Shown: positions 91 through 28,877 of the stretch, one piece after another
Numbering within the stretch: position 1 is the first letter of the stretch
Layout: each line of letters begins with the position of its first letter
Virus record (IMG/VR): IMGVR_UViG_3300025000_000248
Direction: 5' to 3' (one strand)
From: a virus
Length of the DNA: 37,620 nt
Made by a program: the position numbers and the translations under genes
The notes under the pieces: generated by a model
Databases searched by the model: none
The model's input: only the letters and a program-made list of their open reading frames with translations
What the model was told of the DNA's origin: nothing

Positions 91-259
91 AAAAAGCTTT
101 TTAAGTATTTTAAGTATTTTAAGTATTTTAAGTATACTACTTATACTTCTTTTTATTTTAAGTAACCTTATTATATCTCTTTTTTTTAGTTTTTTAATGT
201 TTACTTTTTAAGAGTTCATCATATATACTTAAAATATTAAAAAGCTTAAAAAGCTTTTT
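91..259. repeat. AT-rich repeat region: 10-bp tandem repeat taagtatttt x about 4 (99-140) and two copies of the 12-bp palindrome AAAAAGCTTTTT (91-102, 248-259)
   Basis: Read directly from sequence; no ORF anywhere in 1-678. Confidence 0.8.
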
Positions 260-261
260 TA

Positions 262-291
262 AACCGAAAAAACCCTATGGGGGGTAGGGTT
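262..291 (-). terminator. Rho-independent terminator (minus strand): AACCCTA-ccccccA-TAGGGTT followed by TTTTTTCGG
   Basis: Perfect 7-bp GC-rich stem plus a U-run on the minus strand. Confidence 0.7.
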
Positions 292-361
292 ATTATACTG
301 TATGAAGGTTTTTATAGCTGAGAAAGATGCTTATTATACTTTACTCTCTTTTAGCTTAAAG

Positions 362-412
362 GGCCTTCGGCCCCGAGATAGTCGCCAAGGCTCCTATCTC
401 GTTTTTAGTATA
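362..412 (+). terminator. Plus-strand terminator-like tandem hairpins: GGGCC-UUCG-GGCCC then CGAGATAG-12 nt-CTATCTCG-TTTTT
   Basis: UUCG tetraloop hairpin followed by an 8-bp hairpin plus T5 on the plus strand. No plus-strand gene is evident. Confidence 0.45.
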
Positions 413-630
413 TTTAAACACGAACTGTATACTTAAGTGTTACTATTACGGATAAGCTATTATAAGTTTTTATCCTCTGTGACATAACCTGCTGAAAGAA
501 AGCTTAATATACTACCACAGATTAAACAAGAGGAAACGCTCTCCTAGGTAGGCCGTCTACGGCCAGTGTATACAGTATATTACCACCAATCCCGACTAAA
601 TCAGTCGGTATTACATTCACCCCAACAAGC

Positions 631-656
631 AGAGGAGCACCATATGGTGCTCCTCT
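631..656. promoter_or_regulatory. 26-bp perfect palindrome AGAGGAGCACCA-TA-TGGTGCTCCTCT (AGAGG...CCTCT hairpin family)
   Basis: Seen in sequence. Related members at 2760-2785, 3882-3910, 5597-5620, 7047-7070 and 14077-14102. Confidence 0.6.
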
Positions 657-678
657 TGGCTTTACGTGTCTAATATAA

Positions 679-930
679 TCACCCGCCCAGACTAACGTAG
701 TGTTTCATAGCGTTTAATGCTGATACCTTAGCTTCATTAATAAGAGCTGTATCCCCATTACCGCCCGTGCCATTTGGTACGCTGTTTAAGTTAGCACACC
801 CTGGACACTTAAACTTACTATGCTTTGGTACTAAGAACTTCCCGTGATCTATGCAACTCCTTACAGTCAAACCACTGGGCATACCAATCTGTGCTACTAT
901 GGTGTCAATAGGGCTTGTCATCTTTATCAC
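679..930 (-). CDS. Hypothetical small Cys/His-containing protein
   Basis: ORF of 83 aa in the minus-strand gene train. Confidence 0.45.
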   Translation of the reverse strand: MIKMTSPIDTIVAQIGMPSGLTVRSCIDHGKFLVPKHSKFKCPGCANLNSVPNGTGGNGDTALINEAKVSALNAMKHYVSLGG

Positions 931-933
931 TCC

Positions 934-1602
934 TTAGTCAGTAGTTTGTGCATCTTCATATTGTTTTAGGTATTCAGGAGCATGTTCCAAGTAATAAGCA
1001 TACTCTATGTCTGCTATATTCTTGTCCATCTCCTCCCACTTATCTGAAGGTACATACCTCTTAATTATCTCTAAGATAGCACCAAACTTCTTATCCTCCA
1101 GCTCACGTACTTGTTCTAGCCCAAACTCTGTAAGGCCAGCATGCTTACCTTGTGTTAACTTATTTTTCATTTCAATAGCTTTCAGTGTGTCAGATAAGCT
1201 AACCTCCTTAGCATTAAGAAGACTATCAAACCCTCGTTGTATGACCAGGTCTAGCACTTGTAATTCATTGCGCACCTTAACTTTAGCCTCTTCGTGTGCT
1301 ACAGGAGGTAGCATGATAGACTGTCTGGGAGCAGGGATACCTGCTGCACTTATGCCTAATAGCTTTTCCACAGTTATTTCTTTAGCCAAGGAGCTTTGTA
1401 ACAAGGCTTTGTACTCATACAGCTTTTGTATAGATATACTAAACCCATGTAGCCTGCACCAATCAGATAGCCTAGTGGGAGATTCCCCATCTAGTAATCT
1501 ACTGTTAAGCTGCTTTATATGTTCCCATGCACATAGTTTTTCTAACTTGTAATATTTAGTTTCAAGTTGAGTGGGTTTGTTAGGGGTGGGCACCATGACC
1601 AT
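934..1602 (-). CDS. Hypothetical protein (222 aa)
   Basis: Long minus-strand ORF, tightly spaced with its neighbour. Confidence 0.55.
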   Translation of the reverse strand: MVMVPTPNKPTQLETKYYKLEKLCAWEHIKQLNSRLLDGESPTRLSDWCRLHGFSISIQKLYEYKALLQSSLAKEITVEKLLGISAAGIPAPRQSIMLPPVAHEEAKVKVRNELQVLDLVIQRGFDSLLNAKEVSLSDTLKAIEMKNKLTQGKHAGLTEFGLEQVRELEDKKFGAILEIIKRYVPSDKWEEMDKNIADIEYAYYLEHAPEYLKQYEDAQTTD

Positions 1603-1619
1603 AAAATGACCTCCTTATT

Positions 1620-1883
1620 TTATGTGAGTTTGCGTATACCAAAGTCCTTAGGGTCAAATGCAGGCTGTATTGTTAGATGATACTCACAGACAAACCCTTC
1701 AGACACTACTGCTTGACTATTAACACCGGCATGCTTGGCCACTAGCCGGTAACCGGCTGTTTGGCCACAGGCTAGGCAGGTGGGGTGAGATGAGTAGACT
1801 GACTCTTTAAAGCTAACGTCAATGTCATGGCGCGATGCGCCTAGCGCTGTGCCTAAGTCTGATCTCATTACTTCTTTACACAT
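1620..1883 (-). CDS. Hypothetical protein (87 aa)
   Basis: ORF with no recognised motif. Confidence 0.4.
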   Translation of the reverse strand: MCKEVMRSDLGTALGASRHDIDVSFKESVYSSHPTCLACGQTAGYRLVAKHAGVNSQAVVSEGFVCEYHLTIQPAFDPKDFGIRKLT

Positions 1884-2020
1884 CCTTTACATATATGATC
1901 AGTTATAAGTTGTGCTAGCTCGATCCTAGGGATGCTATGTTTCTGGTAGGCGCGCCTAGAACAATAAATTTCAATAGGCTCGCCCGCTTACGCGGGCTCG
2001 CTTTAAGCTACCCCACCCAT

Positions 2021-2280
2021 CCCATACTAATTCATCCCATACTAATTCATCCCATACTAATTCATCCCATGCTAATTCATCCCATGCTAATTCATCCCAT
2101 GCTAATTCATCCCATACTAATTCATTCAATACTAATTCATTCAATGCTAATTCATTCAATGCTAATTCATTCAATGCTAATTCATCCCATACTAATTCAT
2201 TCAATACTAATTCATTCAATGCTAATTCATTCAATGCTAATTCATTCAATGCTAATTCATTCAATGCTAATTCATCCTAT
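2021..2280. repeat. About 17 tandem copies of a 15-bp unit (TAATTCATCCCATRC / TAATTCATTCAATRC variants): iteron-like array
   Basis: Seen in sequence. Flanked by GGCTCGCTTTAAG (2000-2012) and GGCTCGCTTTATTTTAAG (2286-2303), with a GC hairpin GCCCGC-TTAC-GCGGGC at 1982-1997. Confidence 0.9.
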
Positions 2281-2397
2281 ACCTGGCTCGCTTTATTTTA
2301 AGTTATCCACTGCAGTAGCCTACCACAATAAACCCCACAAGTCACTTACTGAGCACACAAATAGAACACCCATATTACAACAAATAGAACAAGCATA

Positions 2398-2691
2398 TTA
2401 TATCTCGTCCCTACCTTTCAACATATCATTAAGCTTTCTAAATCCACCTAGTTTACACATTGAGCAGGAGGTTAAGGTTATAAACTCACTTTTATCTAGG
2501 ATACACACTACACTCATGTCAAATAGACATCCAGTAGTGCTCCAATTGCCATGCTCATCTTCAAACACAAGGCCCCCAGTTACTACTTCAATTGTTTCAT
2601 AATGCTTACACACCCCGCATATAGGGGGCACCCCGCCCGCATAGTAAGGACATCTTACTTCTGGCCTAGCTATGCACATACCCTTTTCCAC
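2398..2691 (-). CDS. Cys-rich small protein (CPYYAGG...CGVCKHY), possibly distantly related to the CPLYGCPKH family
   Basis: ORF of 97 aa with a GTG/ATG start region. Confidence 0.5.
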   Translation of the reverse strand: MEKGMCIARPEVRCPYYAGGVPPICGVCKHYETIEVVTGGLVFEDEHGNWSTTGCLFDMSVVCILDKSEFITLTSCSMCKLGGFRKLNDMLKGRDEI

Positions 2692-2759
2692 ACAACCACC
2701 CCACTTTAACCATTAATATCTTTATCTTTCGTAACTCCACATGTAAGTAAACAACTAAA

Positions 2760-2785
2760 AGAGGTATCTCACATGAGATACCTCT
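2760..2785 (-). terminator. Perfect palindrome AGAGGTATCTC-ACAT-GAGATACCTCT followed on the minus strand by TTTTAGTTGTTT
   Basis: 11-bp stem plus a U-run on the minus strand. Confidence 0.55.
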
Positions 2786-2881
2786 AACCACTATTATCAA
2801 ATGGAAATCCTAACATATACCACATATGGTGGGCTAACTGTTAGCTATTAAAAAAATTACCCCCCTAAAAGAACTGCATAC

Positions 2882-2968
2882 CCCCTCCCCCAGGGGGTTC
2901 AAAAATATCAAGGGGGTATTGAAATAGGAGTGCCCACAGGGGCTAAGATAATATACCCCCTGGGGGTA
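2882..2968. promoter_or_regulatory. Cluster of GGGGGTAT / ATACCCCC octamers in both orientations, including the palindrome ATACCCCC-T-GGGGGTAT (2951-2967)
   Basis: Seen in sequence. Lies between the 3' end of the Cys-rich operon and the next gene start. Confidence 0.5.
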
Positions 2969-2976
2969 TCAATTCA

Positions 2977-3417
2977 TTATTCTAGGTAAGCACTTGACTC
3001 CCCTACAAGTATCTTCCTAGCAATGTAACCAAGCTTATTGAGTTGGTCTGCATAATAGTTAGCACCTGTATTGAAGCATAAATCTTCTGGTAATTTTGTC
3101 CCTAGCACCTTGTTAGCAATATCTTCAGGGGCATTAGTGATGAGGTAAGCACCTGAACCATGTAGGTACAACCTGCAAGCATCCAAATATCTCTGGGCTA
3201 ATAAGTCATTTTCAGATACTTCTGAGACAGGGTTTATAATAGGGGTGTCCTCCATTGTGATAGCTAATATGGGGTGCTTAGGACACCCATATAAGGGGCA
3301 GGTGTCCATTTTAGTTATAGTACACCCATCAGGCTTAGCATGCTCACACCCATCCACACACTCACACCAACCCGTCTTAGAGAAACATACTTTTCTGTCA
3401 ACATCATTGCACAACAT
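2977..3417 (-). CDS. Cys-rich CPLYGCPKH-family protein (member A) with about 90-aa C-terminal extension
   Basis: N-terminal C-x-DV-x-x-x-C...CxCxxC...TCPLYGCPKH block, shared with 8 paralogs. Confidence 0.65.
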   Translation of the reverse strand: MLCNDVDRKVCFSKTGWCECVDGCEHAKPDGCTITKMDTCPLYGCPKHPILAITMEDTPIINPVSEVSENDLLAQRYLDACRLYLHGSGAYLITNAPEDIANKVLGTKLPEDLCFNTGANYYADQLNKLGYIARKILVGESSAYLE

Positions 3418-3420
3418 ATA

Positions 3421-3795
3421 TTAATACTCCTCTCCTAATTCATGCGCCATTGGGGCATCATAACCATCCTCTTCTAGTATGCTAGACAATTTAGTGACAA
3501 CATACCCCCGGCTGATGAGATATGGAACAGTATCCTCTGGATCTACTTCATTACCCTCCTCATCTTCAGTAGGACGCTCATCCAGTACGTGTTCTAATTC
3601 AACAGGATCATCGGTGCCTTGCACTACATATGCTTGGCGTACAGCCCCTTCGGCATCATACCACAGATAAGCAGTCATCTTAGAGAAGTCCAGAGTGCTT
3701 ACCGCACCACAATTGATGCATAAAGACTTGTTAATTTCATCCCACATACCAGTTTCTAGACACTTAGGGCATTTAGCTTTAGCTAACACATTCAC
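3421..3795 (-). CDS. Zn-ribbon (CPKC...CINC) plus acidic X domain protein
   Basis: GTG start with AGAGGAGG ribosome-binding site. C-terminal half resembles the small ORFs that partner the Cys-rich genes. Confidence 0.55.
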   Translation of the reverse strand: MNVLAKAKCPKCLETGMWDEINKSLCINCGAVSTLDFSKMTAYLWYDAEGAVRQAYVVQGTDDPVELEHVLDERPTEDEEGNEVDPEDTVPYLISRGYVVTKLSSILEEDGYDAPMAHELGEEY

Positions 3796-3837
3796 TACAC
3801 ATACCTCCTCTTAGCCCAGACCTTCGGGGCATGATTA

Positions 3838-3866
3838 ATTATATCATGAAATGGGGGAGAAGTCAA
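3838..3866 (-). promoter_or_regulatory. Sigma-A-type promoter P1: cTTACTTGACTt-N17-TATAAT
   Basis: Conserved 12-mer around -35 and a consensus -10. Confidence 0.7.
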
Positions 3867-3881
3867 GTAACCCCACGTGCT

Positions 3882-3910
3882 AGAGGAGTACACGCAATGT
3901 GTACTCCTCT
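3882..3910. promoter_or_regulatory. Perfect palindrome AGAGGAGTACAC-GCAAT-GTGTACTCCTCT
   Basis: 12-bp stem immediately upstream of P1. Confidence 0.6.
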
Positions 3911-3943
3911 TTGTAGCAAATAGATTTAATGTAGCATCTTCAA

Positions 3944-4096
3944 TTACTTGCCCTCTGCATAGAACTTAAACCATACTTCATATTCCTCTAGGTTTAGTTC
4001 TACACACATACCATCACTCAGTATGTCATCTTCATAACCCTCAGTAGTAAACACACACCCTGATTCAGGGTGATGCCAGTACACCTTAGCTGTCAC
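3944..4096 (-). CDS. Unlisted small ORF (50 aa, GTG start, GGAGGA ribosome-binding site), X-domain-like
   Basis: Translated by eye as VTAKVYWHHPESGCVFTTEGYEDD... Sits between member B and P1. Confidence 0.3.
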   Translation of the reverse strand: MTAKVYWHHPESGCVFTTEGYEDDILSDGMCVELNLEEYEVWFKFYAEGK

Positions 4097-4125
4097 AATT
4101 TATAGTCCTCCATTCTGTTACAATC

Positions 4126-4308
4126 TTATTTCACTACAGCTTTATGCCTAGGACATCCATATAAGGGGCAGGTATGCTTCTGGGTAAGCATACATATCTT
4201 GGATACATGTGAATACTGATCACACACGTCACACTTACATATATTGCTGTTACCTAATTCACCATTAAAGCATACACTAATGTTCACTTCATCACACGTT
4301 TTATCCAC
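4126..4308 (-). CDS. Cys-rich CPLYGCPKH-family protein (member B)
   Basis: ...TCPLYGCPRHKAVVK. Confidence 0.6.
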   Translation of the reverse strand: MDKTCDEVNISVCFNGELGNSNICKCDVCDQYSHVSKICMLTQKHTCPLYGCPRHKAVVK

Positions 4309-4313
4309 ATTAT

Positions 4314-4496
4314 CTACCTCCTAGTTAAGGTCTCCTCATCTGCTAAGGTACAACGCTCTACCCATATGCCGTCTTTACTCGCCATACTCTTAGCCTCTTC
4401 ATGGTCTACTGCTTCATATTCTTCTACTGTGTTATAGAACTTATCAGCATCCATGCCATATCCCTGTCTGCATCCGGCTACTACATACTTTGGCAT
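4314..4496 (-). CDS. Small acidic protein (X1)
   Basis: 60 aa, immediately upstream of member B. Confidence 0.45.
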   Translation of the reverse strand: MPKYVVAGCRQGYGMDADKFYNTVEEYEAVDHEEAKSMASKDGIWVERCTLADEETLTRR

Positions 4497-4508
4497 TTCT
4501 TATCCCTC

Positions 4509-4862
4509 CTATATCATCTTATGATGTTTTAACCTTTCTGGATAGTTAGACATGATATAATCAAATACCTCTTGTTCTGACTCAGTGTTAATTCCTTTAA
4601 CCTTTAGCTCAGAAATAGCTATATGAAATCCTGTGCCATCTTCCCCACGTACAAAGAATGTGCCATAATTTCCACGTATATTGACCTCCACAGTGAAGTT
4701 AGCAATAGGTATACTGTTAGCATTCTCTAGTTCAGCACGTATTTGCATTAGGGCTTCTGCCCAGGACTGTTTACCTGTTTGGGCATCAATTATGGCATCC
4801 TCAATTACCCTACCAATCTCTAACACTTTATCCTCAATATCAGTTGTTGTGTGATTAGACAT
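4509..4862 (-). CDS. Hypothetical protein (117 aa)
   Basis: ORF with no recognised motif. Confidence 0.5.
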   Translation of the reverse strand: MSNHTTTDIEDKVLEIGRVIEDAIIDAQTGKQSWAEALMQIRAELENANSIPIANFTVEVNIRGNYGTFFVRGEDGTGFHIAISELKVKGINTESEQEVFDYIMSNYPERLKHHKMI

Positions 4863-4879
4863 TGCTTGCTACCTCCTTC

Positions 4880-5110
4880 TTAAGACTTATAATCTGACAT
4901 ACTGTTATAAGCTTTAGGCCAATCCTGTTCTTTTACAGTAGCTTCATGCTTGGGACACCCATATAATGGACAAGTACTAACTCCAGTAGATGGGCAGGGG
5001 TCACTGGCATCCATAGAGTAATTGTGATCAATCCTGGGGCAATCTAAACATGGACACCTATCCAGGTTCTGCTCACATATGTGTATTACTTCAGGACATA
5101 GCTTACTCAT
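4880..5110 (-). CDS. Cys-rich CPLYGCPKH-family protein (member C)
   Basis: MSKLCPEVIHIC...CPCLDC...TCPLYGCPKH. Confidence 0.6.
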   Translation of the reverse strand: MSKLCPEVIHICEQNLDRCPCLDCPRIDHNYSMDASDPCPSTGVSTCPLYGCPKHEATVKEQDWPKAYNSMSDYKS

Positions 5111-5313
5111 CCCATCGACCCCAATTCATAGGCTATTAGCATGCCAAGGGGTAAAGACATCTGCTCAGAAGCCATCTTAATAGCTTCTTCCTCAGTTTCA
5201 GCATGAAACACACCTAGAACTAAGTCTCCCTGCATTTCCCTAACACTACCATCATTTTCATTTGTTACATAAGCTACGGCTATAGCTTCACTCTCCACAC
5301 ATACTAGAAACAT
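5107..5313 (-). CDS. Small acidic protein (X2)
   Basis: 68 aa; its 3' end overlaps the start of member C by 4 bp (ATGA-type overlap). Confidence 0.45.
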   Translation of the reverse strand: MFLVCVESEAIAVAYVTNENDGSVREMQGDLVLGVFHAETEEEAIKMASEQMSLPLGMLIAYELGSMG

Positions 5314-5361
5314 TTCACATACCTCCTTATATATTTGGGCATAGTTTCCGCCCCCATTTTA

Positions 5362-5390
5362 ATTATCTCACACTCCAGAGAAAAAGTCAA
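5362..5390 (-). promoter_or_regulatory. Sigma-A-type promoter P2: CTTACTTGACTT-N17-GATAAT with GTGTGA -16 element
   Basis: Conserved motif. Confidence 0.7.
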
Positions 5391-5596
5391 GTAAGATTAG
5401 GTGATATAAGGTTATCCCATGCCTGCCCAAACTAGGGCTTATCAGTAACCTCACAAAAGCTGTAAGAAAATTTGTAAGAGAATTTCTCGGAGAAGGGTTT
5501 CCCATACCGGACGGAAATTCCCTTACAAAGTTCCTATGAAGTTTGTAAGAAGGTTTGTAAGGCCGGGAATAGGCGTCCACCCCCGCAAACGCGGAG

Positions 5597-5620
5597 AGAG
5601 GATACCATGTGGTATCCTCT
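5597..5620. promoter_or_regulatory. Perfect palindrome AGAGGATACCA-TG-TGGTATCCTCT, preceded by small hairpin CCGC-AAAC-GCGG
   Basis: Lies after the stop of member D. Confidence 0.6.
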
Positions 5621-5666
5621 TTGTCCTGGCTTGCTAGTAGGTGATCTGTAATGGGAATTTACACCC

Positions 5667-5831
5667 TTAACATTTTATACTACCCATTACTATGGGACAT
5701 CCATATATAGAACAGGGAGTCCCATTATGGTAATCATAACATGCTGTCCACCTATCACAATCAATACAATAACATGAGTAGCCCTTATTACTGCACTCAG
5801 CACTAGAGATTTCCCAGCATTGTTTAGGCAT
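5667..5831 (-). CDS. Cys-rich family member D (start refined to MPKQCW...)
   Basis: ...CYCIDC...TPCSIYGCP. The track ORF was extended into the upstream overlapping gene. Confidence 0.5.
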   Translation of the reverse strand: MPKQCWEISSAECSNKGYSCYCIDCDRWTACYDYHNGTPCSIYGCPIVMGSIKC

Positions 5832-5982
5832 AGGGTGCCTGCTTTTCAGTAGCAGCACACTTTTGACATCCATAGGCTGGGCATAATCGACATCCTACAT
5901 CGCATGTAGTACAAGGACACATCTTATCCCCAATTGTGTTGTCACATACTAAATTACTCACATCAAGACACATCTTACTCAT
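5824..5982 (-). CDS. Unlisted Cys-rich family member (I): MSKMCLDVSNLVCDNTIGDKMCPCTTCDVGCRLCPAYGCQKCAATEKQAPYA
   Basis: Found by hand translation. Its ATG overlaps the stop of member E (AATGAGTAA) and there is an AAGAGGAAA ribosome-binding site. Confidence 0.5.
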   Translation of the reverse strand: MSKMCLDVSNLVCDNTIGDKMCPCTTCDVGCRLCPAYGCQKCAATEKQAPYA

Positions 5983-6187
5983 TAGTTTCCTCCTTTAATA
6001 TGGCAGTGTGTTTAGGGCACCCATATAAGGGGCAAGTACCTGAAACTGGGTGAGCACACTCACCTTCTTTAAGCTTGATATACCCATCCTCGCAGTACAC
6101 ACACGGGCAGGTACTGTATCCAGTTGCCTCCTCCCGGCAAATATCTTCACAGACTTCTACATCAACCTTATTACAAGGCTTACTCAT
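5975..6187 (-). CDS. Cys-rich CPLYGCPKH-family protein (member E)
   Basis: MSKPCNKVDVEVC...CPCVYC...TCPLYGCPKH. Confidence 0.6.
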   Translation of the reverse strand: MSKPCNKVDVEVCEDICREEATGYSTCPCVYCEDGYIKLKEGECAHPVSGTCPLYGCPKHTAILKEETNE

Positions 6188-6365
6188 TGGTACCACCAGC
6201 TAAGCTTGTCAGATTTGATAGCACTGCACCATACTTTTGACATCCATACAAGGGACAACAAATGCAATCTCCTGATAGGAAAAAATCACAATCTCCACAC
6301 TCACAATAATCATGTCCTTCACACTCACAGACTTCCACATCCACATCCCCACAAAATCTACTCAT
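6180..6365 (-). CDS. Cys-rich family member F
   Basis: MSRFCGDVDVEVCEC...CCPLYGCQKY. Confidence 0.6.
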   Translation of the reverse strand: MSRFCGDVDVEVCECEGHDYCECGDCDFFLSGDCICCPLYGCQKYGAVLSNLTSLAGGTNE

Positions 6366-6525
6366 CATCTTCAACTCCTATCTTTTTACCATCTGCATAG
6401 GTTGCTTTGTGCTCTGCACACCCATATAGGGAGCATTGCTCGCATTGTGGTATTACTGGGCACCCTCTGCACGGACATATCTGATTGGCGCATTCTCGCA
6501 GTACCTCTCTACACAGCTTACTCAT
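6358..6525 (-). CDS. Cys-rich family member G
   Basis: MSKLCREVLREC...CPCRGC...CSLYGCAEH with a GTGAGGAAG ribosome-binding site. Confidence 0.6.
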   Translation of the reverse strand: MSKLCREVLRECANQICPCRGCPVIPQCEQCSLYGCAEHKATYADGKKIGVEDDE

Positions 6526-7006
6526 CTTCCTCACCCCCACTATCTAGACATTTATATGCCATGGCATTGTCGTCTCCGTCTTTTATCACCACCCCTGATA
6601 TTGGAATTACAGTATGCCCTAAGTTAACTAGGTGCTTGATGTGCGCCTTTGCATCCTTACAGTGGCACGTATTGCAGGCATTGCCTTCGCAGTTTAAGCA
6701 CACATCCCTATCATGCTCCTCCAGGATATTCTCAAGGTGCATGGGGTCATTCAGGCCATACACCAAATACGCTGAGCTGGGTGCTGTAGTAGAGTTATCA
6801 CCCCCGTACACAAGGTAGAGGACTGGGGCAGTAGGTTCAGGCTCAGCAGTTGGCAATGGGTGCTTAGGGCATCCAAATATGGGGCAGGTGTTCAGTTTGG
6901 TAATTGCACACACACCTTGATAATTAGACTTATTTTCACACATGTTGCAGTGACATGGGTACCCCTTAGCAGTACACATCTCAATAGATACATCTTTACA
7001 TTCCAT
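6518..7006 (-). CDS. Cys-rich family member H with fused C-terminal X-like domain and second Cys cluster
   Basis: MECKDVSIEMC...CHCNMC...TCPIFGCPKH, then ...AYLVYGLNDPMHLENILEEHD... Confidence 0.6.
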   Translation of the reverse strand: MECKDVSIEMCTAKGYPCHCNMCENKSNYQGVCAITKLNTCPIFGCPKHPLPTAEPEPTAPVLYLVYGGDNSTTAPSSAYLVYGLNDPMHLENILEEHDRDVCLNCEGNACNTCHCKDAKAHIKHLVNLGHTVIPISGVVIKDGDDNAMAYKCLDSGGEEDE

Positions 7007-7175
7007 ACATACACCCCCTTATTTTCCTAAATAAACCTCAAGTGCTGAGAGGAGCCCCATGCTCCCCTCTTTCACTAGTACTTCTTGGATGAGGGAATTT
7101 AAGTACTCTCTATCCTTCTCAGATAACCCCAGCTCTGGTAAATTGAACACAACTGTGATCTTTACTTGCTCCACT

Positions 7176-7526
7176 TTATTCCCCCTTACACATGCGCTCC
7201 ATAATAGTAAGTCTGCTAATAATCATGGTGAGTACACAGGCGCTATCCAACCCATCTATCACGAATCTCTCATGTAACTCCTCGGCGGTAATGTGTTCTC
7301 CCTCTAACCACCCCATTATTTGATCTGCTACCTGGCCAAAGGCAAAACTGGTAGCTGTTGCAGTCTCCCCAGTTTCTAGGTCACTGACCTGCACCATGGA
7401 TTCATCTGTACAGGGCCCTACCTTCAATGTGACATTAAATGGTGTACCGCAACAGACACATATCCACCCCATAATATCAATGTGATGAATCTCAGTGTTG
7501 CTACAATTTGGGCATTTCGTTAACAT
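7176..7526 (-). CDS. Zn-ribbon protein (CPNC...CVCC)
   Basis: ORF of 116 aa. Confidence 0.5.
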   Translation of the reverse strand: MLTKCPNCSNTEIHHIDIMGWICVCCGTPFNVTLKVGPCTDESMVQVSDLETGETATATSFAFGQVADQIMGWLEGEHITAEELHERFVIDGLDSACVLTMIISRLTIMERMCKGE

Positions 7527-7543
7527 CTACATACCTCCCTACT

Positions 7544-7813
7544 TTAATCCCAATAATTACTACCTACTGTATTTACTCCAAGCTTATATAGTTCTCTTAA
7601 GGTTATCTCTAGAATCTTTTCATTGGGGATAGCAGCAATGATGCAAGCGTTAGCTTCAATAGTACTGAGATCAAATGCTTGACCAAGATGAACATTCAGA
7701 AATACATGAAAATGTGGGTATTCAGTAGCTTTAAAGTCATCAACATTAGGGGGTGTCACCAATCCAGTGCCTTCAACATTGTACATACAAGGGTTAAAAA
7801 ATGCTACAGCCAT
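7544..7813 (-). CDS. Hypothetical protein (89 aa)
   Basis: ORF with no recognised motif. Confidence 0.45.
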   Translation of the reverse strand: MAVAFFNPCMYNVEGTGLVTPPNVDDFKATEYPHFHVFLNVHLGQAFDLSTIEANACIIAAIPNEKILEITLRELYKLGVNTVGSNYWD

Positions 7814-7861
7814 TTACATACCTCCTCTTATTTTCTGTGGGGGCATTCTTCCCCACACCCA

Positions 7862-7890
7862 ATTATATCACAAAACAGAGGAGAAGTCAA
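7862..7890 (-). promoter_or_regulatory. Sigma-A-type promoter P3: CTTACTTGACTT-N17-TATAAT (TTGTGA -16 element)
   Basis: Conserved motif. Confidence 0.7.
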
Positions 7891-7926
7891 GTAAGGTTAG
7901 GTGTTATGGGCCTAAGCATGAGAAGG

Positions 7927-7956
7927 TAAAGAAAATAGCCCTTGTAGGGGGCTATT
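7927..7956 (-). terminator. Terminator hairpin AAATAGCCC-TTGTAGG-GGGCTATTT plus TTTCTTT on the minus strand
   Basis: 9-bp stem plus a U-run. Confidence 0.6.
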
Positions 7957-8197
7957 TGTCTACTAATTTCTACTCCTCCTGAATAGATCTGCATACATTA
8001 ATGAGACTGTGCACTAATCCTACAGATGCTGCTAAATGGCCACCCTAACCACCAAGATATAAACTTGCGGCACTAACGCATACCTCCATGCTTATTATCT
8101 TCTCCCTCAGGTTCTTTGCTCATGCACATAAAGATAAGCACCATCCACGCACCTAATCCAGCTAATATGGTTGCTGCACTTATCATGCATAATGCCA

Positions 8198-8461
8198 TCA
8201 TTCTTTACCATCCTCACTACCCTTCCTATACCATATAACTGTATTCCACATGGACTTAGAAGTATCCATGTCGCCAACCGCAATAACAATATACTCAACT
8301 AATAAATAAGCCAATAACCACGGAGGAACTACTAGATGTTTTAATCTTACACCTCCATTTAGGTACTTCATATTAAAGTCTCCCGCATGGTATCCTATAA
8401 AAAGGATTACAGCACTTACGACAAATATTGTAACACTTATTATCCCAAACGCTATTAACAT
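8198..8461 (-). CDS. Small membrane protein
   Basis: Hydrophobic N-terminus. Confidence 0.45.
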   Translation of the reverse strand: MLIAFGIISVTIFVVSAVILFIGYHAGDFNMKYLNGGVRLKHLVVPPWLLAYLLVEYIVIAVGDMDTSKSMWNTVIWYRKGSEDGKE

Positions 8462-8658
8462 ATCCCCGCACTCCTCACTTTAATGTCTTCCACCCAGCCA
8501 TCTACGAACTTGCCTAGTTCCTCAAAGGGTGCTCCTTCTAGGTGACTCCCATACTTCGACTGAGCAATCTCTAGGTAAGTAGCTATATCTTTGGTACTAA
8601 CTCCTAAAGGTTCCAACCCTGCCACTAACATGAAATATAGAGCTTGGTGCTTAGTCAT
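8455..8658 (-). CDS. Hypothetical protein (67 aa)
   Basis: ORF with no recognised motif. Confidence 0.4.
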   Translation of the reverse strand: MTKHQALYFMLVAGLEPLGVSTKDIATYLEIAQSKYGSHLEGAPFEELGKFVDGWVEDIKVRSAGIC

Positions 8659-9145
8659 TTCTGGGTCTCACCGCAGTAGTCACTTCTTGTGACACCACCG
8701 CTGGCTTCCAATCACCTGAAGGTCTAAATTTAGATAGGTCTCCCCCAGTCTCTAACAAGGCATTAAGCTCTCCCCATTGTTCTGAGGTCATATCACGCTG
8801 TATGTACGTATCCCACCATTCATACCAAGCTTTATATGAGTCGGTACGATCTACATGCTCTCCAGGTTTAGGGTCAGGGATCTCTACTCCGAACCTACGT
8901 GATTGCATCACAGCAAACTCTAAGGCATATTGTGCCCGTATCATGTCATCAGCAACTTCTATTGGCATTGGCATACCGATTTCATGATTCAATTGGCTAG
9001 CATGTTTCACATTGTGAATAAACCTATCCAGCACATCAATTATACCATATACCCCATATTCGGAACCAGACTTAAGTATTTCCACCCCCTTCTTCATAAT
9101 AAATGTGCCAGGATCTATGCCCCATTGTAGGTGTAGGTTTAACAT
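8651..9145 (-). CDS. Hypothetical protein (start refined to MLNLHL... with AAAGAGGAGGA ribosome-binding site)
   Basis: ORF with strong Shine-Dalgarno sequence. Confidence 0.5.
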   Translation of the reverse strand: MLNLHLQWGIDPGTFIMKKGVEILKSGSEYGVYGIIDVLDRFIHNVKHASQLNHEIGMPMPIEVADDMIRAQYALEFAVMQSRRFGVEIPDPKPGEHVDRTDSYKAWYEWWDTYIQRDMTSEQWGELNALLETGGDLSKFRPSGDWKPAVVSQEVTTAVRPRND

Positions 9146-9200
9146 GAGCTTGTCCTCCTCTTTCATATTGAATAAGCCCACATATAAGTGGGCTTATTCT

Positions 9201-9416
9201 TTATTCAGCGCTCCAAGATGCGCCACACAGGTCACATGTAAACATTGCGTACCCATGTGGAAGTTCTATGCTAACAGCACCACCACCATCCTCGCGCCTG
9301 GGGTCACAAGCGTCTAGGAGTTCTTGCCTTTTCACCTTATTAGCTAATAGAACCTCTTCCTGAACAGCTATGTCTGCATTGAGCTCAGTTAACGCCTTAA
9401 TACTTATGCTGTCCAT
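9201..9416 (-). CDS. Hypothetical protein (71 aa)
   Basis: AAGGAGG ribosome-binding site. Confidence 0.5.
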   Translation of the reverse strand: MDSISIKALTELNADIAVQEEVLLANKVKRQELLDACDPRREDGGGAVSIELPHGYAMFTCDLCGASWSAE

Positions 9417-9581
9417 TTACTTGCTAACCTCCTTAATTCTTAAGGGACAAGTTTCCCACTCATCGAGATGGGGGCACTCGGCACCATCATAGCATCTCCT
9501 CTTAGTAGGCCCCTTGAAAATGAAACATAAATAAGTGATAACACTAACCAAGATTATGCTCCCGGAAATAATCAGATCCAA
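9417..9581 (-). CDS. Unlisted small membrane protein ORF (54 aa, TTG start)
   Basis: Hand translation LDLIISGSIILVSVITYLCF... Its stop abuts the next ribosome-binding site and start codon. Confidence 0.3.
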   Translation of the reverse strand: MDLIISGSIILVSVITYLCFIFKGPTKRRCYDGAECPHLDEWETCPLRIKEVSK

Positions 9582-9592
9582 TATATAGCCCC

Positions 9593-9889
9593 CTAGTACA
9601 GATTAGAACTGCCTCCGCTATTAACTCCCAGCCACCCCACCATGGCCAATATGGCCACTACAATAGCCACCCCACCCTGAGCACGTGTAGGCTCTTTGAT
9701 TAGAGCTATACCACCAAAGATAAACCCAACAAAGGGAAACACACAAGTAAGGCTAAGAATTACCCCCAGCTTAACCATAGACCAAGGCTTAACCTCTTTG
9801 GCTAGAACCTCACTTTTAGTAGGCTCCCCACAGTTTGGGCAGTGTAATGCGTTGGCAGACATATCCTTACTACAGTTTTTACAGAACAT
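9593..9889 (-). CDS. Zn-ribbon plus 2-TM membrane protein
   Basis: CKNC...CPNC then hydrophobic segments. Confidence 0.5.
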   Translation of the reverse strand: MFCKNCSKDMSANALHCPNCGEPTKSEVLAKEVKPWSMVKLGVILSLTCVFPFVGFIFGGIALIKEPTRAQGGVAIVVAILAMVGWLGVNSGGSSNLY

Positions 9890-9960
9890 AGTAGATGCCT
9901 CCTAATTATAAACTCAGTATCTTCAACCGCAGTTCTATTTAATCTATTCACCTCTTGTAC

Positions 9961-10227
9961 TTAGTCGTGGAAAATAAATAGACCCATAGCCCCAAATATC
10001 ACAAACAATATCAACCAACCAAGTAAAGTATACCCGATGTCATCCCAAGGTACTTCATAATAATGTGGCGTTTCCTTATCTTCTTTAAGGTGAGGTAGGG
10101 GACAATCACTGGGTATGTAATCACCATCACCAGGATGCCCCTCTTTTAATTTGTCCCAGTACACAAACATACCTACTTCTCCATGTGGACAATGATAACA
10201 ATCATTTACTGATACTTTTGCACACAT
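9961..10227 (-). CDS. Small protein with C-terminal TM helix
   Basis: ORF of 88 aa. Confidence 0.45.
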   Translation of the reverse strand: MCAKVSVNDCYHCPHGEVGMFVYWDKLKEGHPGDGDYIPSDCPLPHLKEDKETPHYYEVPWDDIGYTLLGWLILFVIFGAMGLFIFHD

Positions 10228-10480
10228 GCGTTTAAAGAAACTTATTCTTCTTTAAGAATAGCCTCCCTACACTTCAATTCATCACCTTAATCAGTTCATC
10301 TACCCCTCTCCTATAATCAGGTTTAGCTCCCACCACACTTAGCGGGAGCCTAGTCCTTATGGTATTAGCCTGTTAAAGAAATCATATACAACAGGTGTCG
10401 TTTTGACAAGTACATATCCAGTGATTACTGTTTTTAGGACTTCTTGTATCACAAGATGAACACCCATCTTAGTTCCCCCT

Positions 10481-11158
10481 TTATCCCAACAATTTAGCAT
10501 CTCGCAATGCCATTATGCAATACATGCGGAGTATCCTCAAATCACCCTTAGCATCTTTCACTTCCAAGTCATTATCCATGGTCATTTGCACTAACTGCTC
10601 TGTAGTGTAGGCAGCATATTTGGACTTAGACTTACCCCCAGTCTTCTCCTTAGGGAAGTGTAGCTCAACAATCGCCATAGCCACACGCATACGCCAGATA
10701 GCCTCATGGTCTGTGACTTTAATGTCGGAGAGAATACCTTCCAGATCAGCCCACTCCATAAGCTCATCAATAGAGAGCTTCTTAATAAACTTCTGTAGAG
10801 GTTTCTTCTCCTTATAAGTACCCTTCTCTGGATAAGTTACATCTGATATCACCGCAGGCTTACCTTGAAGCTTAGGTGCAGGAGTTTCTAGTGGAGGCTC
10901 CTCCTCTTCATCAGTGTTTTCCACCTCTTCAGCAGCAACAGCTACCTCATCCTCAGTGGCATTGTCCAAGGAGGTTTCCACCTCATCTAGAACTTCCAGT
11001 TCAGGCTCTTCATCAATATTGTCCCCGCCATCCACGATAACTCCTGGATATAGACCTGCCTCGATGTCCCGAGTAGTAACACGGGGTACTCCCAGTTCCA
11101 CAGCTAGTTCTTTAAGGGAAGATACCTCTTTGCCATTAACCATATACATTTTACTCAT
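10481..11158 (-). CDS. Hypothetical protein with long acidic (D/E-rich) linker
   Basis: ORF of 225 aa. Confidence 0.5.
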   Translation of the reverse strand: MSKMYMVNGKEVSSLKELAVELGVPRVTTRDIEAGLYPGVIVDGGDNIDEEPELEVLDEVETSLDNATEDEVAVAAEEVENTDEEEEPPLETPAPKLQGKPAVISDVTYPEKGTYKEKKPLQKFIKKLSIDELMEWADLEGILSDIKVTDHEAIWRMRVAMAIVELHFPKEKTGGKSKSKYAAYTTEQLVQMTMDNDLEVKDAKGDLRILRMYCIMALRDAKLLG

Positions 11159-11218
11159 TCACATACACTCCTTCATATTGTTATAGTGGTCGTAGGGTGC
11201 TCCCCGACCCGTTGAATA

Positions 11219-11248
11219 ATTTTATCATGGGGGTGGGGGGGAAGTCAA
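11219..11248 (-). promoter_or_regulatory. Sigma-A-type promoter P4: CTACTTGACTT-N18-TAAAAT
   Basis: Conserved motif. Confidence 0.6.
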
Positions 11249-11412
11249 GTAGACTTAGTTGATAGAGCTTTAAGCATCTGATCTTCAGTGTCCCTTGTAT
11301 TCATATCTTCCATAACTAAGCATAATAGGATTTTTAGCTCAAGTCGGGAGTATCCATGTGATATTTCTTGTAACTCATCTCTGAGGGTTGATAATTCCTT
11401 AACGCTGAACAC
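11245..11412 (-). CDS. Unlisted small ORF (55 aa, GTG start, TAGGAGGT ribosome-binding site)
   Basis: Hand translation VFSVKELSTLRDELQEISHG... Confidence 0.3.
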   Translation of the reverse strand: MFSVKELSTLRDELQEISHGYSRLELKILLCLVMEDMNTRDTEDQMLKALSTKST

Positions 11413-11423
11413 TTACATACCTC

Positions 11424-11705
11424 CTAATCTTTTATATCTGGCCCGTATATAGTAACTAAAACTGAGGCACTTTTAGGCCTATTCTTTATGATCCTTAGTA
11501 CTAATGTGTTGTTAGCAGTAGGGTCTGAATGAATTATCACCCTATTAGCATCCAGTATATCGGATTCTGGTCTATTAGATGTAGGACTTTGATGTGCATT
11601 TATTCCTTCCTTAGCTAAAGCAGCCATAACTCTAAGTTCAAACTGGGAGTAACTCTGATCTATCAATCTTCTGCTCTCCCCTATTTCATTGCTTTTGTCT
11701 TTCAT
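11424..11705 (-). CDS. Hypothetical protein
   Basis: ORF of 93 aa. Confidence 0.45.
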   Translation of the reverse strand: MKDKSNEIGESRRLIDQSYSQFELRVMAALAKEGINAHQSPTSNRPESDILDANRVIIHSDPTANNTLVLRIIKNRPKSASVLVTIYGPDIKD

Positions 11706-11716
11706 CTGTATGTCTC

Positions 11717-12046
11717 CTACACTATAGTAATGTGATCACTGAAGACATCTAAAGGGAGCCACCGTACACTCTTATCCACCAGATATGGAGAAACATACTC
11801 AAACCCAATAAAGTATCCAGCTAGTGTCTCAGCTATTTCCTCACTCCAGAAATTCTTATCTGAGATGTACTCCGCTATGTACTCTCCGGCTTCTTTAGGA
11901 ACACTGATAGCAGGCTGGATTTCCACCACTTTGATAGTACCTTCCATGAGGCTAGACCACCCAGTGCTAGGATGAATCTTGTAGTGCACATTAAGCACTA
12001 TGGATTCACAAGGTCTAGCTACACCTTCCATTGTAATTACATTCAC
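11717..12046 (-). CDS. Hypothetical protein
   Basis: ORF of 109 aa. Confidence 0.45.
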   Translation of the reverse strand: MNVITMEGVARPCESIVLNVHYKIHPSTGWSSLMEGTIKVVEIQPAISVPKEAGEYIAEYISDKNFWSEEIAETLAGYFIGFEYVSPYLVDKSVRWLPLDVFSDHITIV

Positions 12047-12090
12047 TCACACATACCTCCTTATCTTGCGTGGGCTTCGCCCCACGATTA

Positions 12091-12119
12091 ATTTTACCAT
12101 GGGCTGGGGGAAAAGTCAA
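12091..12119 (-). promoter_or_regulatory. Sigma-A-type promoter P5: CTTACTTGACTT-N17-TAAAAT
   Basis: Conserved motif. Confidence 0.65.
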
Positions 12120-12144
12120 GTAAGGTTAAATGGTATGAAAGCGT

Positions 12145-12176
12145 ATAAGAAAACCCCACCTGCTAAGAGTGGGGTT
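12145..12176 (-). terminator. Terminator AACCCCAC-9 nt-GTGGGGTT plus TTTTCTTAT on the minus strand
   Basis: 8-bp GC-rich stem plus a U-run, immediately upstream of P5. Confidence 0.65.
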
Positions 12177-12184
12177 GTGAAGAA

Positions 12185-12517
12185 CTAGGTGGCAGGAGTA
12201 AAGTCCTGGACTTCTACTTGTAGGTCACCCCACCAGAAGCCATAATCAGTTAGGAGCACTGAATTGTCTTGAAGTAGATTGTGCTCTTCAATACTTGGCA
12301 CAAAATCCCTATCTTCTGAGTATCTCACCCAAATTTCAGATATTTGAGCTAGATCCTTCCTCATGCTAGGGTGTGGCATGCTTTGTGGTATTAGTGCTAA
12401 AATAGTATTATCTGTGGATTCAAGAAACACATGATCTACACCCTCCCCTACGGCCTCTAGGGTAGAAATTATAGCCTGTTGGGTAGTGAGATTCTCCAGA
12501 TTGATCACTGCAATCAT
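12185..12517 (-). CDS. Hypothetical protein
   Basis: ORF of 110 aa. Confidence 0.45.
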   Translation of the reverse strand: MIAVINLENLTTQQAIISTLEAVGEGVDHVFLESTDNTILALIPQSMPHPSMRKDLAQISEIWVRYSEDRDFVPSIEEHNLLQDNSVLLTDYGFWWGDLQVEVQDFTPAT

Positions 12518-12529
12518 TGTATGGCCTCC

Positions 12530-13120
12530 TTAGCTTTCTATTATGACGTTACAATCTTTACAACCCCAGCAATAATCCACTACCTCACCCTGTTTGATAT
12601 CTATTTGAACTTCTGCAGGTTTGTTACACTTAGGGCACAGTACCACGTCCCTAGGGGTAGGAGCCTTGTAGTGCTTACAGGAATCTGTGTGGATTAACTT
12701 GCACCCCTCGCCATATGGGCCTTCAGGCCAAGGGGCATGGCATACTCCACCATCAAAGTGTACGCAACCTTTGGTATCAAGGGTGCCAATGTCAATTATC
12801 TCTAATTTAAGGGACTCAGACTTAATCTCCTGAATATGCCCAGTATCATGTAAATACTTGATAATCTCATCATGGGTCAAAGTAGAGAATATACTAAGAA
12901 CTTTAACCTGCCACTGCTCACAGATACTCTCAGGATGTCCCACTATACGTTGTACAACCTCAGATAACTGATCCCATCTTATATACATTAATTCAGGTGC
13001 GGTGCAACAGGCGTCTCGGCTAACACGTTCAAACCCACTGAGATCTGTACCCTCTGGTAGCTCTGCTTTAATCTGTTTAATAACTTCCCCTATATTGCGT
13101 GGTGTTTCACTCAATTTCAC
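12530..13120 (-). CDS. Hypothetical protein with C-terminal Zn ribbon (CPKC...CWGCKDC)
   Basis: ORF of 196 aa. Confidence 0.5.
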   Translation of the reverse strand: MKLSETPRNIGEVIKQIKAELPEGTDLSGFERVSRDACCTAPELMYIRWDQLSEVVQRIVGHPESICEQWQVKVLSIFSTLTHDEIIKYLHDTGHIQEIKSESLKLEIIDIGTLDTKGCVHFDGGVCHAPWPEGPYGEGCKLIHTDSCKHYKAPTPRDVVLCPKCNKPAEVQIDIKQGEVVDYCWGCKDCNVIIES

Positions 13121-13796
13121 TTACCGTCCTTCCAGCCATAGCATTGATAAATCTAGCAATATCACCATGAGTGAAGAACCGAGCATCGTCAAATACAAAG
13201 CGTATCTCTGATTTACAGGGTGGGGCTGTGTATATAAATTCCAGCTCCACTTGTTCTGATGAATATCCTGCCTTACGTATCCGAGCTTCAAAAAATTTTC
13301 CCACTGCACTAACTAATTCAGGGCTTGACAATGAAGAAGGCATTTTCAGTATCATTTCTGGATAGGATCGGGCAGTGGCCCAATAGGATTCCATGCCTTC
13401 CTCATCTTTTATGATATCGCTTAGAGTTTCATCAAACCACCATCTATGGAGATACTCACTTTCTGGGCCTTCTAACTGGAGGAATGCATAGTTAATGTCT
13501 TCACATAGAGTAGACAAAGTGTTGCCCTCTAAGGGTAAAGCAATAAAGTCTGGGAACTGAGGATACTCACCCTCAGTGAACACAAGGTCATATATGTGCT
13601 CCACTACCTCAGTACTAACACATGCCGGAGCATATACTTCAATGTGCTGATCTAGTTTAAGCCAAGCATACTTGAGGTCGGGTAGATTCTCCTTTACAAA
13701 CTGTTCAGTGCTTAAACCACTGCGATGCTCTTCTTGGGTAAATACTAAGGTTTTACCCTCAAATTTAGAGAGGTCAACCTTCATTAATACTGTCAT
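13107..13796 (-). CDS. Hypothetical protein (229 aa)
   Basis: ORF with no recognised motif. Confidence 0.5.
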   Translation of the reverse strand: MTVLMKVDLSKFEGKTLVFTQEEHRSGLSTEQFVKENLPDLKYAWLKLDQHIEVYAPACVSTEVVEHIYDLVFTEGEYPQFPDFIALPLEGNTLSTLCEDINYAFLQLEGPESEYLHRWWFDETLSDIIKDEEGMESYWATARSYPEMILKMPSSLSSPELVSAVGKFFEARIRKAGYSSEQVELEFIYTAPPCKSEIRFVFDDARFFTHGDIARFINAMAGRTVSEIE

Positions 13797-13996
13797 CCCA
13801 CTTCCCCCTCCATGCTCTTAATATGAATCTTCTCGTTTACTTCATAGAATGGGACACCATCCGCCCATTGGCTGTCATCAATGAAAAGGACGCTATTAGA
13901 GTTTTTAGCAACAACCTCTCTGAGCTGTTCTACAATACCATCCAGGTTACGTTTGTTGGCCGCATCTAAGGTCAATGTGATTGAAATTACTGACAT
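13793..13996 (-). CDS. Hypothetical protein (67 aa)
   Basis: ORF with no recognised motif. Confidence 0.4.
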   Translation of the reverse strand: MSVISITLTLDAANKRNLDGIVEQLREVVAKNSNSVLFIDDSQWADGVPFYEVNEKIHIKSMEGEVG

Positions 13997-14046
13997 TATA
14001 CATACCTCCTGTTTAAATTAAAGTAAGGTTCTCTGAACCTCCCCTA

Positions 14047-14102
14047 ATTGTTGCATGAAACCAAGAAAAAGTCAAGTACCTCTAAGGCTTTCCTTAGAGG
14101 TA
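14047..14102 (-). promoter_or_regulatory. Promoter P6 (TACTTGACTT-N17-AACAAT) whose -35 overlaps the palindrome TACCTCTAAGG-CTTTC-CCTTAGAGGTA (14077-14102)
   Basis: Conserved motif with an overlapping 11-bp palindrome. Confidence 0.55.
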
Positions 14103-14226
14103 CTTTTCTCACTTCTCTTGATAGAAGTTGCTAACATCCATTAAAGTTATACCGCTCATTATGTGACCACCTATAGCTGCTTCTACAGCTTGAAGTATCA
14201 CCATTTCATCTTCTTCACTCTGGATT

Positions 14227-28871: not shown

Positions 28872-28877
28872 CCCTCC

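Follow-up and report, generated by a model that had tools for sequence, protein, structure and literature searches.

The DNA analysed here is a 37,620-nt stretch of IMG/VR virus record IMGVR_UViG_3300025000_000248 (the window) that, judged by its genes, is from an uncultured SPO1-like (Spounavirinae-like) phage and carries an early region of the host-takeover type. The subject of this report is a set of short palindromes in this region, several of them with an AGAGG...CCTCT base. A 222-amino-acid (aa) protein encoded at 934–1602 is a homologue of SPO1 gp36.2 and has a further homologue in Exiguobacterium phage vB_EalM-132 (Herelleviridae, Spounavirinae). Its gene is surrounded by paralogues of the SPO1 gp51 family, and upstream of the gp51-family/gp36.2 region lie genes for a helicase, an ATP-dependent ligase, SSB and a sigma factor. 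In SPO1, gp36.1 and gp36.2 open the terminal redundancy bearing the host-takeover module. All long open reading frames (ORFs) are on the minus strand and the GC skew is uniformly negative across the window, indicating that the palindromes should be read as hairpins on the minus strand.

An exhaustive perfect-stem scan of the window recovered all six palindromes listed in the initial annotation, with the perfect ones at 631, 2760, 3882 and 5597 and the imperfect one at 7047 as described; the inverted palindrome given as 14077–14102 proved slightly longer (14074–14105). They were designated hp1 to hp6 and are all given on the minus strand. hp1 (631–656) is a perfect 13-bp palindrome with zero loop (AGAGGAGCACCAT/ATGGTGCTCCTCT). 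hp2 (2760–2785) has 12 bp and a 2-nt loop (AGAGGTATCTCA..TGAGATACCTCT, followed by UUUAGUUGUUU), hp3 (3882–3910) 12 bp and a 5-nt loop (AGAGGAGTACAC..GTGTACTCCTCT), and hp4 (5597–5620) 11 bp and a 2-nt loop (AGAGGATACCA..TGGTATCCTCT). hp5 (7047–7071, GAGGGGAGC AUGGG GCUCCUCUC) is a weak, imperfect member with a G.U pair on the sense strand. hp6 (14074–14105) has 14 bp and a 4-nt loop (AAGTACCTCTAAGG..CCTTAGAGGTACTT); CCTCT stands in its 5′ arm, the inverse of the AGAGG arrangement, and it is not an AGAGG-base member. An additional AGAGG/CCTCT match at 19398–19417, absent from the earlier list, is the inner part of a minus-strand hairpin at 19394–19421 (AAGGAGAGGAT..ATCCTCTCCTT, followed by UUUAAUUAU).

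Such stems were far more frequent than in shuffled DNA. In the window, 10 perfect stems reached or exceeded 11 bp, where dinucleotide shuffles gave 0.1, and AGAGG-N(8-24)-CCTCT matched seven times, against a shuffle mean of 0.67 (0 of 100 shuffles reached seven), so that the proposed enrichment over shuffled controls was confirmed within the window. One of these matches (15340–15368) forms no hairpin. No further AGAG-base hairpin was found in the window by a relaxed scan, which confined the strict family to 631–5620. Fold energies of hp1–hp4 and hp6 were −15.6 to −21.4 kcal/mol, with z-scores of −5 to −7.7 (hp1 core, −20.8 kcal/mol and z −5.75); that of hp5 was about −12.5 to −19 kcal/mol. Across the window, no covariance model of Rfam 15 matched at its gathering score, and in positions 1–8000 no match at E ≤ 1 overlapped a hairpin. 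The copies did not behave as mobile repeats of the REP or MITE kind: their interiors differ, and their flanks share short motifs only.

Ten near-identical sigma-A-type promoters (cTTACTTGACT-17-TGnGAnAATTA) were found on the minus strand, at 32742, 24490, 19137, 15865, 14075, 12119, 11248, 7890, 5390 and 3866, each of which precedes a small G+C hairpin in the 5′ untranslated region (5′UTR) and a strong Shine-Dalgarno (SD) sequence AAGAGGAGGTATGT. hp3 lies 33 nt past a stop codon and is separated by 15 nt from the −35 box of P3866 downstream (3838–3866, minus, TTGACT-17-TGATATAAT), and hp4 lies 46 nt past a stop codon and 206 nt upstream of P5390 (5362–5390, minus, TTGACT-17-TGAGATAAT). hp6 is 121 nt past a stop codon and shares 2 nt with P14075 (14047–14075, minus, TTGACT-17-TGCAACAAT): its 3′ arm ends on the two letters with which the −35 box begins. 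hp1 stands 22 nt past the stop codon of a gp36.3-like gene and is followed by ~630 nt of AT-rich non-coding DNA; hp2 stands 191 nt past the stop codon of gene 2977–3417, with no family promoter nearby; the hairpin at 19394–19421 is 18 nt past the stop codon of an 842-aa gene. A stable stem-loop past a gene on the transcribed strand was found in hp1–hp4 and hp6. hp5 lies inside codons 34–42 of a 51-aa ORF (7019–7174, minus), which is also called by metagenome pipelines. The proposal that all six palindromes sit at operon boundaries holds for five of them and fails for 7047–7071.

U-tails were measured on the sense (minus) strand by a Carafa-type tail score, with a background mean of 0.74 and values of about 2.2–4.1 for the window's clearer U-tailed hairpins. 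Scores were 3.26 for hp2 and 2.35 for 19394–19421, followed by 0.87 for hp6, 0.84 for hp1, 0.58 for hp4, 0.08 for hp5 and 0.05 for hp3. By this score no U-rich tract directly 3′ of the stem was found on the sense strand at hp1, hp3, hp4 or hp5. hp6 is followed by a U-run interrupted by G/C (GACUUUUUCUU), which lies within the −35 box and spacer of P14075, and was picked as terminator-like in a separate consensus scan despite its tail score, as was hp2. By their U-tails, hp2 and 19394–19421 are predicted to be canonical intrinsic terminators, and hp6 a promoter-coupled terminator with an interrupted U-run. The initial annotation had stated that most of the palindromes lack a U-run and are not ordinary terminators. 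The former is correct for 631, 3882, 5597 and 7047 (0.05–0.84) and wrong for 2760–2785; the latter applies to three or four sites and neither to 2760–2785, with its canonical tail, nor to 14074–14105. The same AGAGG motif occurs with U-tails at hp2 and 19394–19421, in continuity with terminators. Beyond the family, two strong sense-strand hairpins without a U-tail were detected, at 9170–9199 (−19.7 kcal/mol) and 16701–16729 (−15.4 kcal/mol); the former stands just past a stop codon and ~24 nt before the next start codon.

The hairpins were compared with those of a relative, contig IMGVR_UViG_3300024999_000044 (loci L001 and L003), which is syntenic with the window at about 75–80% nucleotide identity, and of a third lineage (L057; 67% identity in the gp36.2-like protein), which was informative for hp1 only. 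Orthologues of hp1 were found at L003 10972–11002 (AGAGGAACACTAT) and L057 1156–1189 (AGAGAGACTCTATAC...GTATAGAGTCTCTCT), the latter sharing its flanks with L003; of hp2 at L003 8985–9016 ((AC)AGAGGTATCCTAC, with a weaker tail); of hp3 within a cassette at L003 6638–6751 (AGAGGAGTGCCCA); and of hp6 at L001 15449–15480 (AAATACCCCTAAGG, two compensatory changes). Those of hp1, hp2 and hp3 differed by compensatory changes as well. The position equivalent to hp4 (L003 5783–5812) carries an unrelated stem (AAATGGAGAC... / AAATGGAGACTGAAT...) with a U-rich tail. In hp1, five stem positions covary over the three lineages, with both sides changed and none left unpaired. Over three orthologous pairs, none of 15 AGAGG/CCTCT base pairs changed, versus six of 18 interior pairs, all double-sided (Fisher p = 0.02); the L057 base reads AGAGA...TCTCT, again a compensated change.

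Imperfections pointed to the same strand. The mismatch of hp5 is G.U on the minus strand versus A.C on the plus strand (−18.8 kcal/mol sense versus −15.1 antisense), and several U-tailed hairpins of the window have G.U on the sense strand only. Strain variants (contigs L004–L013) were identical at the hairpins except for one change in hp5: L008 has three synonymous changes in the hp5 ORF, one of them turning C-G into U.G. Changes that are compensatory only, together with G.U pairs on the sense strand, support selection on a sense-strand RNA hairpin and not on a dimeric DNA site. Of the two targets of selection first proposed for the palindromes, the hairpin is therefore the one that the orthologues in two other lineages and the sense-strand imperfections favour.

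The U-tail itself was labile where the hairpin was retained, scoring 3.26 at hp2 in the window versus 0.5–1.2 in L003; at the hp4 position it scored 0.58 versus 2.6 in L003. In several distant relatives the first strong hairpin past the gp36.2-like gene, in the hp1 region, has A-/T-tracts at its base and often a T-rich tail. Further lineages were sought by megablast against phages, which returned no match, by an exact search for hp1 in viral contigs (no match), by a search with the hp3 flank, which returned the known relative only, and by a metagenome scan with an alignment of the gp36.2-like protein, which gave relatives at 45–52% identity plus the known relative.

SPO1 has three hairpins with an AGAG-type base in its terminal-redundancy region (AGAGAGCGG..CCGCTCTCT, AAAAGAGAGCGG..CCGCTCTCTTTT and AAGAGTCCT..AGGACTCTT). 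Among 118 distinct hairpins at SPO1-like loci, an (A)nGAG base was the commonest (19/118), and GAGA or GAGG were the commonest base tetramers (13/118). Other lineages have recurring stem motifs of their own, CTAGGGT...ACCCTAG in several and ATACCCCT in locus L017. On these counts AGAGG/CCTCT is the form that a widespread stem base, (A)nGAG...CUC(U)n, takes in this lineage, and since the AGAG-type base also occurs in U-tailed hairpins of SPO1 and relatives, the motif is less special than was at first proposed. The window resembles SPO1 and other Spounavirinae in its gp36.2 homologue and gp51-family genes, and in short early operons with strong sigma-A promoters, separated by hairpins with the same style of stem base. 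It differs in the tails: in SPO1, TTTT follows the AAGAGTCCT hairpin, and the remaining two hairpins have T-rich tails when read on the strand that carries the neighbouring gene, whereas three hairpins of the window and their orthologues have no T-rich tail on the sense strand.

We consider it probable (roughly 0.6) that the palindromes are templates of stable RNA hairpins closing the early transcription units of this SPO1-like phage, and we infer for them an activity in termination, attenuation or stabilisation. The hairpins would form on minus-strand early transcripts downstream of the early promoters and would close units of the host-takeover type, the intergenic ones at 18–191 nt past a stop codon. 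hp3, hp4 and hp6, just upstream of or fused to family promoters, would make up terminator-promoter cassettes. hp2 and 19394–19421 would act as ordinary intrinsic terminators and hp6 as a promoter-coupled one. hp1, hp3 and hp4 would stop no more than part of the polymerases. Chiefly they would set the 3′ end of the mRNA that precedes them, perhaps once an endonuclease has cut it, and shield this end from exonucleases, thereby insulating adjacent cassettes. They are most likely leaky attenuators or 3′-end-protecting or processing hairpins. The common AGAGG/CCUCU base would have been kept by common descent or cassette shuffling, with an added constraint on the base of the stem.

This mechanism fits the end-mapping data for the Herelleviridae Listeria phage CKA15, in which 13 of 66 mapped transcript 3′ ends resemble intrinsic terminators, and in which the ends in the terminal repeats are unlike intrinsic terminators and termination is nevertheless efficient (PMC12282133). 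In general terms, the elements belong to the known early-region terminator or processing hairpins of phages, set in terminator-promoter cassettes.

Several observations weigh against the closing-hairpin explanation. Apart from the 0.84 of hp1, the sense-strand tails of hp1, hp3 and hp4 are at or below background, so that classical intrinsic termination is not expected at these sites, and hp1 and hp3 have good tails neither in the window nor in L003. hp5 is intragenic. The stem base is conserved beyond the needs of pairing, a hint that some factor recognises its sequence, for which this explanation has no candidate. The CATG or CATATG apex of four of the five AGAGG hairpins at 631–7071, which is not found in the L003 or L057 orthologues, is left without explanation.

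The most serious rival, which we nevertheless regard as unlikely, is that the hairpins without a U-tail (hp1, hp3, hp4, and perhaps hp5 and 9170–9199) are sites of a host RNase III-type enzyme in polycistronic early RNA, where the message upstream of the cut would keep the hairpin as protection. In SP82, a relative of SPO1, B. subtilis RNase III (Bs-RNase III) cuts early RNA at stem-loops that contain internal loops and cuts only their downstream side (cited in PMC1935012 and PMC4838370), which offers a precedent; the early RNase III sites of T7 would be another. The hairpins of the window are, similarly, intercistronic stem-loops without U-tails in SPO1-type early polycistronic RNA, sense-oriented and downstream of early promoters, with a possible internal loop or bulge. 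In longer folds of hp1, hp3, hp4 and the L003 orthologues, the upper stem is repeatedly followed by an A-rich 5′ bulge of 2–4 nt, a second stem of 3–4 bp flush on the 3′ side and further pairs, for a total of about 17–24 bp. The sequence of the short second stem changes among hp1, its L003 orthologue and hp3 with pairing retained, and the enzyme could recognise the conserved stem base. However, the perfect core has just 11–13 bp, versus ~20 bp (about two turns) of double-stranded RNA for an RNase III site, a difference that would also set the hairpins apart from the SP82 sites as these are described. The extra flank pairing was not clearly better than with shuffled flanks (fractions 0.01–0.96; Fisher's method over the eight fractions gave ~0.03, with orthologues that are not independent), and the same AGAGG motif is present in hairpins with canonical terminator tails.

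A related and quite unlikely possibility takes up the conserved stem base. The hairpins without a U-tail would be a sequence-specific RNA signal, composed of the AGAG(G)/CUCU base, the flush 3′ GC mini-helix and the 3′ flank UGCUGUUAUGGCU (two lineages), and read by a dedicated factor, either host RNase III in an SP82-like mode or a phage endoribonuclease or termination factor. If so, a dedicated factor would make 3′ ends independent of a U-tract in early mRNAs of SPO1-like phages, which would explain why most mapped transcript ends of Herelleviridae do not resemble intrinsic terminators. No candidate nuclease or RNA-binding protein was seen among the neighbouring small proteins, which gave no match to Pfam or PHROGs.

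A role of the elements mainly as DNA has only a small chance of being correct. They would then be conserved linkers of mobile cassettes of stem-loop and early promoter that shuffle small early genes, the stem base serving as recombination homology or as a protein target. The block of hp3, P3866 and 5′UTR is 84–85% identical between the window (3808–3920) and L003 (6638–6751), and nearly identical past the hairpin; its flanking genes are not homologous, and homology begins ~10 nt upstream of the hairpin. Gene content of the hp4-hp3-hp2 interval is scrambled among paralogous small genes, and the recurring stem motifs of related lineages are in keeping with such shuffling. PeSL cassettes of the T4-type phages RB49 and phi1, in which an early promoter is joined to a stem-loop with a recurring GGGG...CCCC stem, are a precedent (Arbiol et al. 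2010, PMC2839356). Against this, hp1 and hp2 have no adjacent family promoter, G.U asymmetry points to selection at the RNA level, recent homogenisation (orthologues being closer to each other than paralogues) showed no sign, and no rearrangement between strains was seen to end at a hairpin. L004 seems to have gaps, but these are regularly spaced breaks of 100 nt, which we take to be scaffold gaps and not deletions. A role in recombination would be compatible with the hp3 cassette.

The likeness to PeSL lies in a recurring-motif stem-loop that is joined to an early promoter of the sigma-70 type, in a hyperplastic region of small orphan genes, and, for the hp3 cassette only, in a cassette better conserved than its flanking genes. 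Such joining was found for hp3 (15 nt) and hp6 (overlap), loosely for hp4 (206 nt), and not for hp1, hp2 or hp5. Unlike PeSL, the window belongs to another phage family and host type, its stem-loops lie upstream of the −35 box and not mostly inside the promoter, and two members have no promoter nearby. Promoter-coupled terminators have been described in bacteria (Fletcher et al. 2026 preprint, bioRxiv 10.64898/2026.08.19.745784). As in these, the 3′ end of the stem of hp6 and of a hairpin at 32738–32763 overlaps a −35 box, with the T-run in the spacer of the next promoter; among hp1–hp6, however, only hp6 fits, which is not an AGAGG-base hairpin, and the known system is bacterial and not of a phage.

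It is very unlikely that the hairpins serve to end antisense (plus-strand) transcripts. This reading would account for the short plus-strand T-run (CCTCTTTG) and for the A-run upstream on the sense strand; the plus-strand tail scores of hp3, hp4 and hp5 are 2.0–2.4, versus 0.05–0.6 on the sense strand, and genes of the opposite strand lie beyond the left end of the window. However, the window has neither plus-strand genes nor plus-strand family promoters, the plus-strand tails have just 3 T on a strand that is T-rich overall, the imperfection of hp5 favours minus-strand RNA, and in L003 the tails of the hp1 and hp2 orthologues are weak on either strand.

The suggestion that the palindromes are DNA sites for a dimeric regulator, for example a shut-off factor for early promoters, which would contact fixed outer half-sites (AGAGG/CCTCT), is now scarcely credible. 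It was based on the fixed outer pentamers; in addition, hp3 and hp6 adjoin early promoters, and the palindromic stem of a terminator can at the same time be bound by a transcription factor (bioRxiv 10.64898/2026.08.19.745784). The spacing between AGAGG and CCTCT, however, varies from 13 to 21 nt, which largely refutes it. Moreover, the interior is wholly self-complementary and changes only by compensation, the relation to a promoter is inconsistent (overlapping the −35 box, 15 nt, 206 nt or none), and L057 carries AGAGA...TCTCT, a compensated change.

Least credible of all is that the 5′ arms serve, or once served, as ribosome-binding sites (AGAGGAG + 6–9 nt + ATG in the loop) and that the hairpins sequester an SD or encode mini-ORFs: the SD consensus of the phage is indeed AGAGGAGG and four of the five window hairpins have an ATG, and one a TTG, at an SD-like distance, but this ATG belongs to the palindromic CATG/CATATG apex and is missing from the L003 and L057 orthologues, for which reason it was rejected; the frames opened have 1–24 codons and are not conserved, and no real gene starts within 40 nt. 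A middle promoter of the SPO1 gp28 type (AGGAGA-17/18-TTTNTTT) over the hairpins was also rejected, by eye on both strands, as the spacing is 14–20 nt and there are no plus-strand genes.

Under the reading as hairpins that close early units, the present data provide a comparatively supported map of early-region punctuation (promoters, terminators and hairpins without a U-tail) in an uncultured groundwater SPO1-like phage. If the hairpins without a U-tail do form transcript ends, they would be sequence examples for non-canonical termination or processing in Herelleviridae terminal repeats, and possibly compact insulator parts for Gram-positive synthetic biology; otherwise they would be an ordinary feature of phage early operons.

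Some other features of the region were noted. The 13 nt past the hp1 orthologue (TGCTGTTATGGCT) are identical in L003 (11003–11015) and L057 (1190–1202), the neighbouring protein being only moderately similar, and a T-rich conserved block AGCTTCCTTTnTTA lies ~50–100 nt beyond in all three lineages. The AT-rich non-coding stretch at 1–630 contains TTTTAAGTA four times (99–135), AAAAAGCTT palindromes (237–259), several TATAAT boxes and a small terminator (271–291), and resembles the TTTTAAAGTACTTTAAAA repeats of SPO1 at 11318–11490. The gp36.1/36.2 homologues are preceded by a 15-bp tandem repeat of 17.3 copies (2018–2277, plus-strand unit CATCCAATGCTAATT), which probably lies on or close to the edge of the terminal redundancy; the copy number of the repeat varies among strain contigs L004–L013.

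Small paralogous proteins with a common N-terminal stretch of ~50 aa are encoded on the minus strand at 2977–7006 (ORFs 2977–3417, 4126–4308, 4880–5110, 5667–5873, 5824–5982, 6180–6368, 6358–6525 and 6518–7006). The single member that was read looks Cys-rich, and the order of the genes is shuffled between the window and L003. Between hp4 and P5390, TTACAAA/TTTGTAA motifs are repeated at 5368–5596 (minus), in a stretch conserved at L003 5812–5870 that could be an operator or iteron array; a 70-aa ORF called there (5368–5580) may be spurious.

The 842-aa ORF (19440–21968, minus) matches the Pfam major vault protein shoulder PF11978 (E 6e-26) and the vault repeat PF17795, and its sole relatives in the phage database (~43% identity) are in the huge uncultured phages LR756500/501/503 of 462–735 kb. 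The stretches 26055–27030 and 28730–30500 are gene-poor and were found to contain tRNA-Ile(tat), tRNA-Trp, tRNA-Asp and a possible fourth tRNA at 26789–26862. A strong promoter-like site was seen on the plus strand at 26591–26619, and the imperfections of two hairpins at 26077–26109 and 26589–26618 are G.U pairs if these are read on the plus strand.

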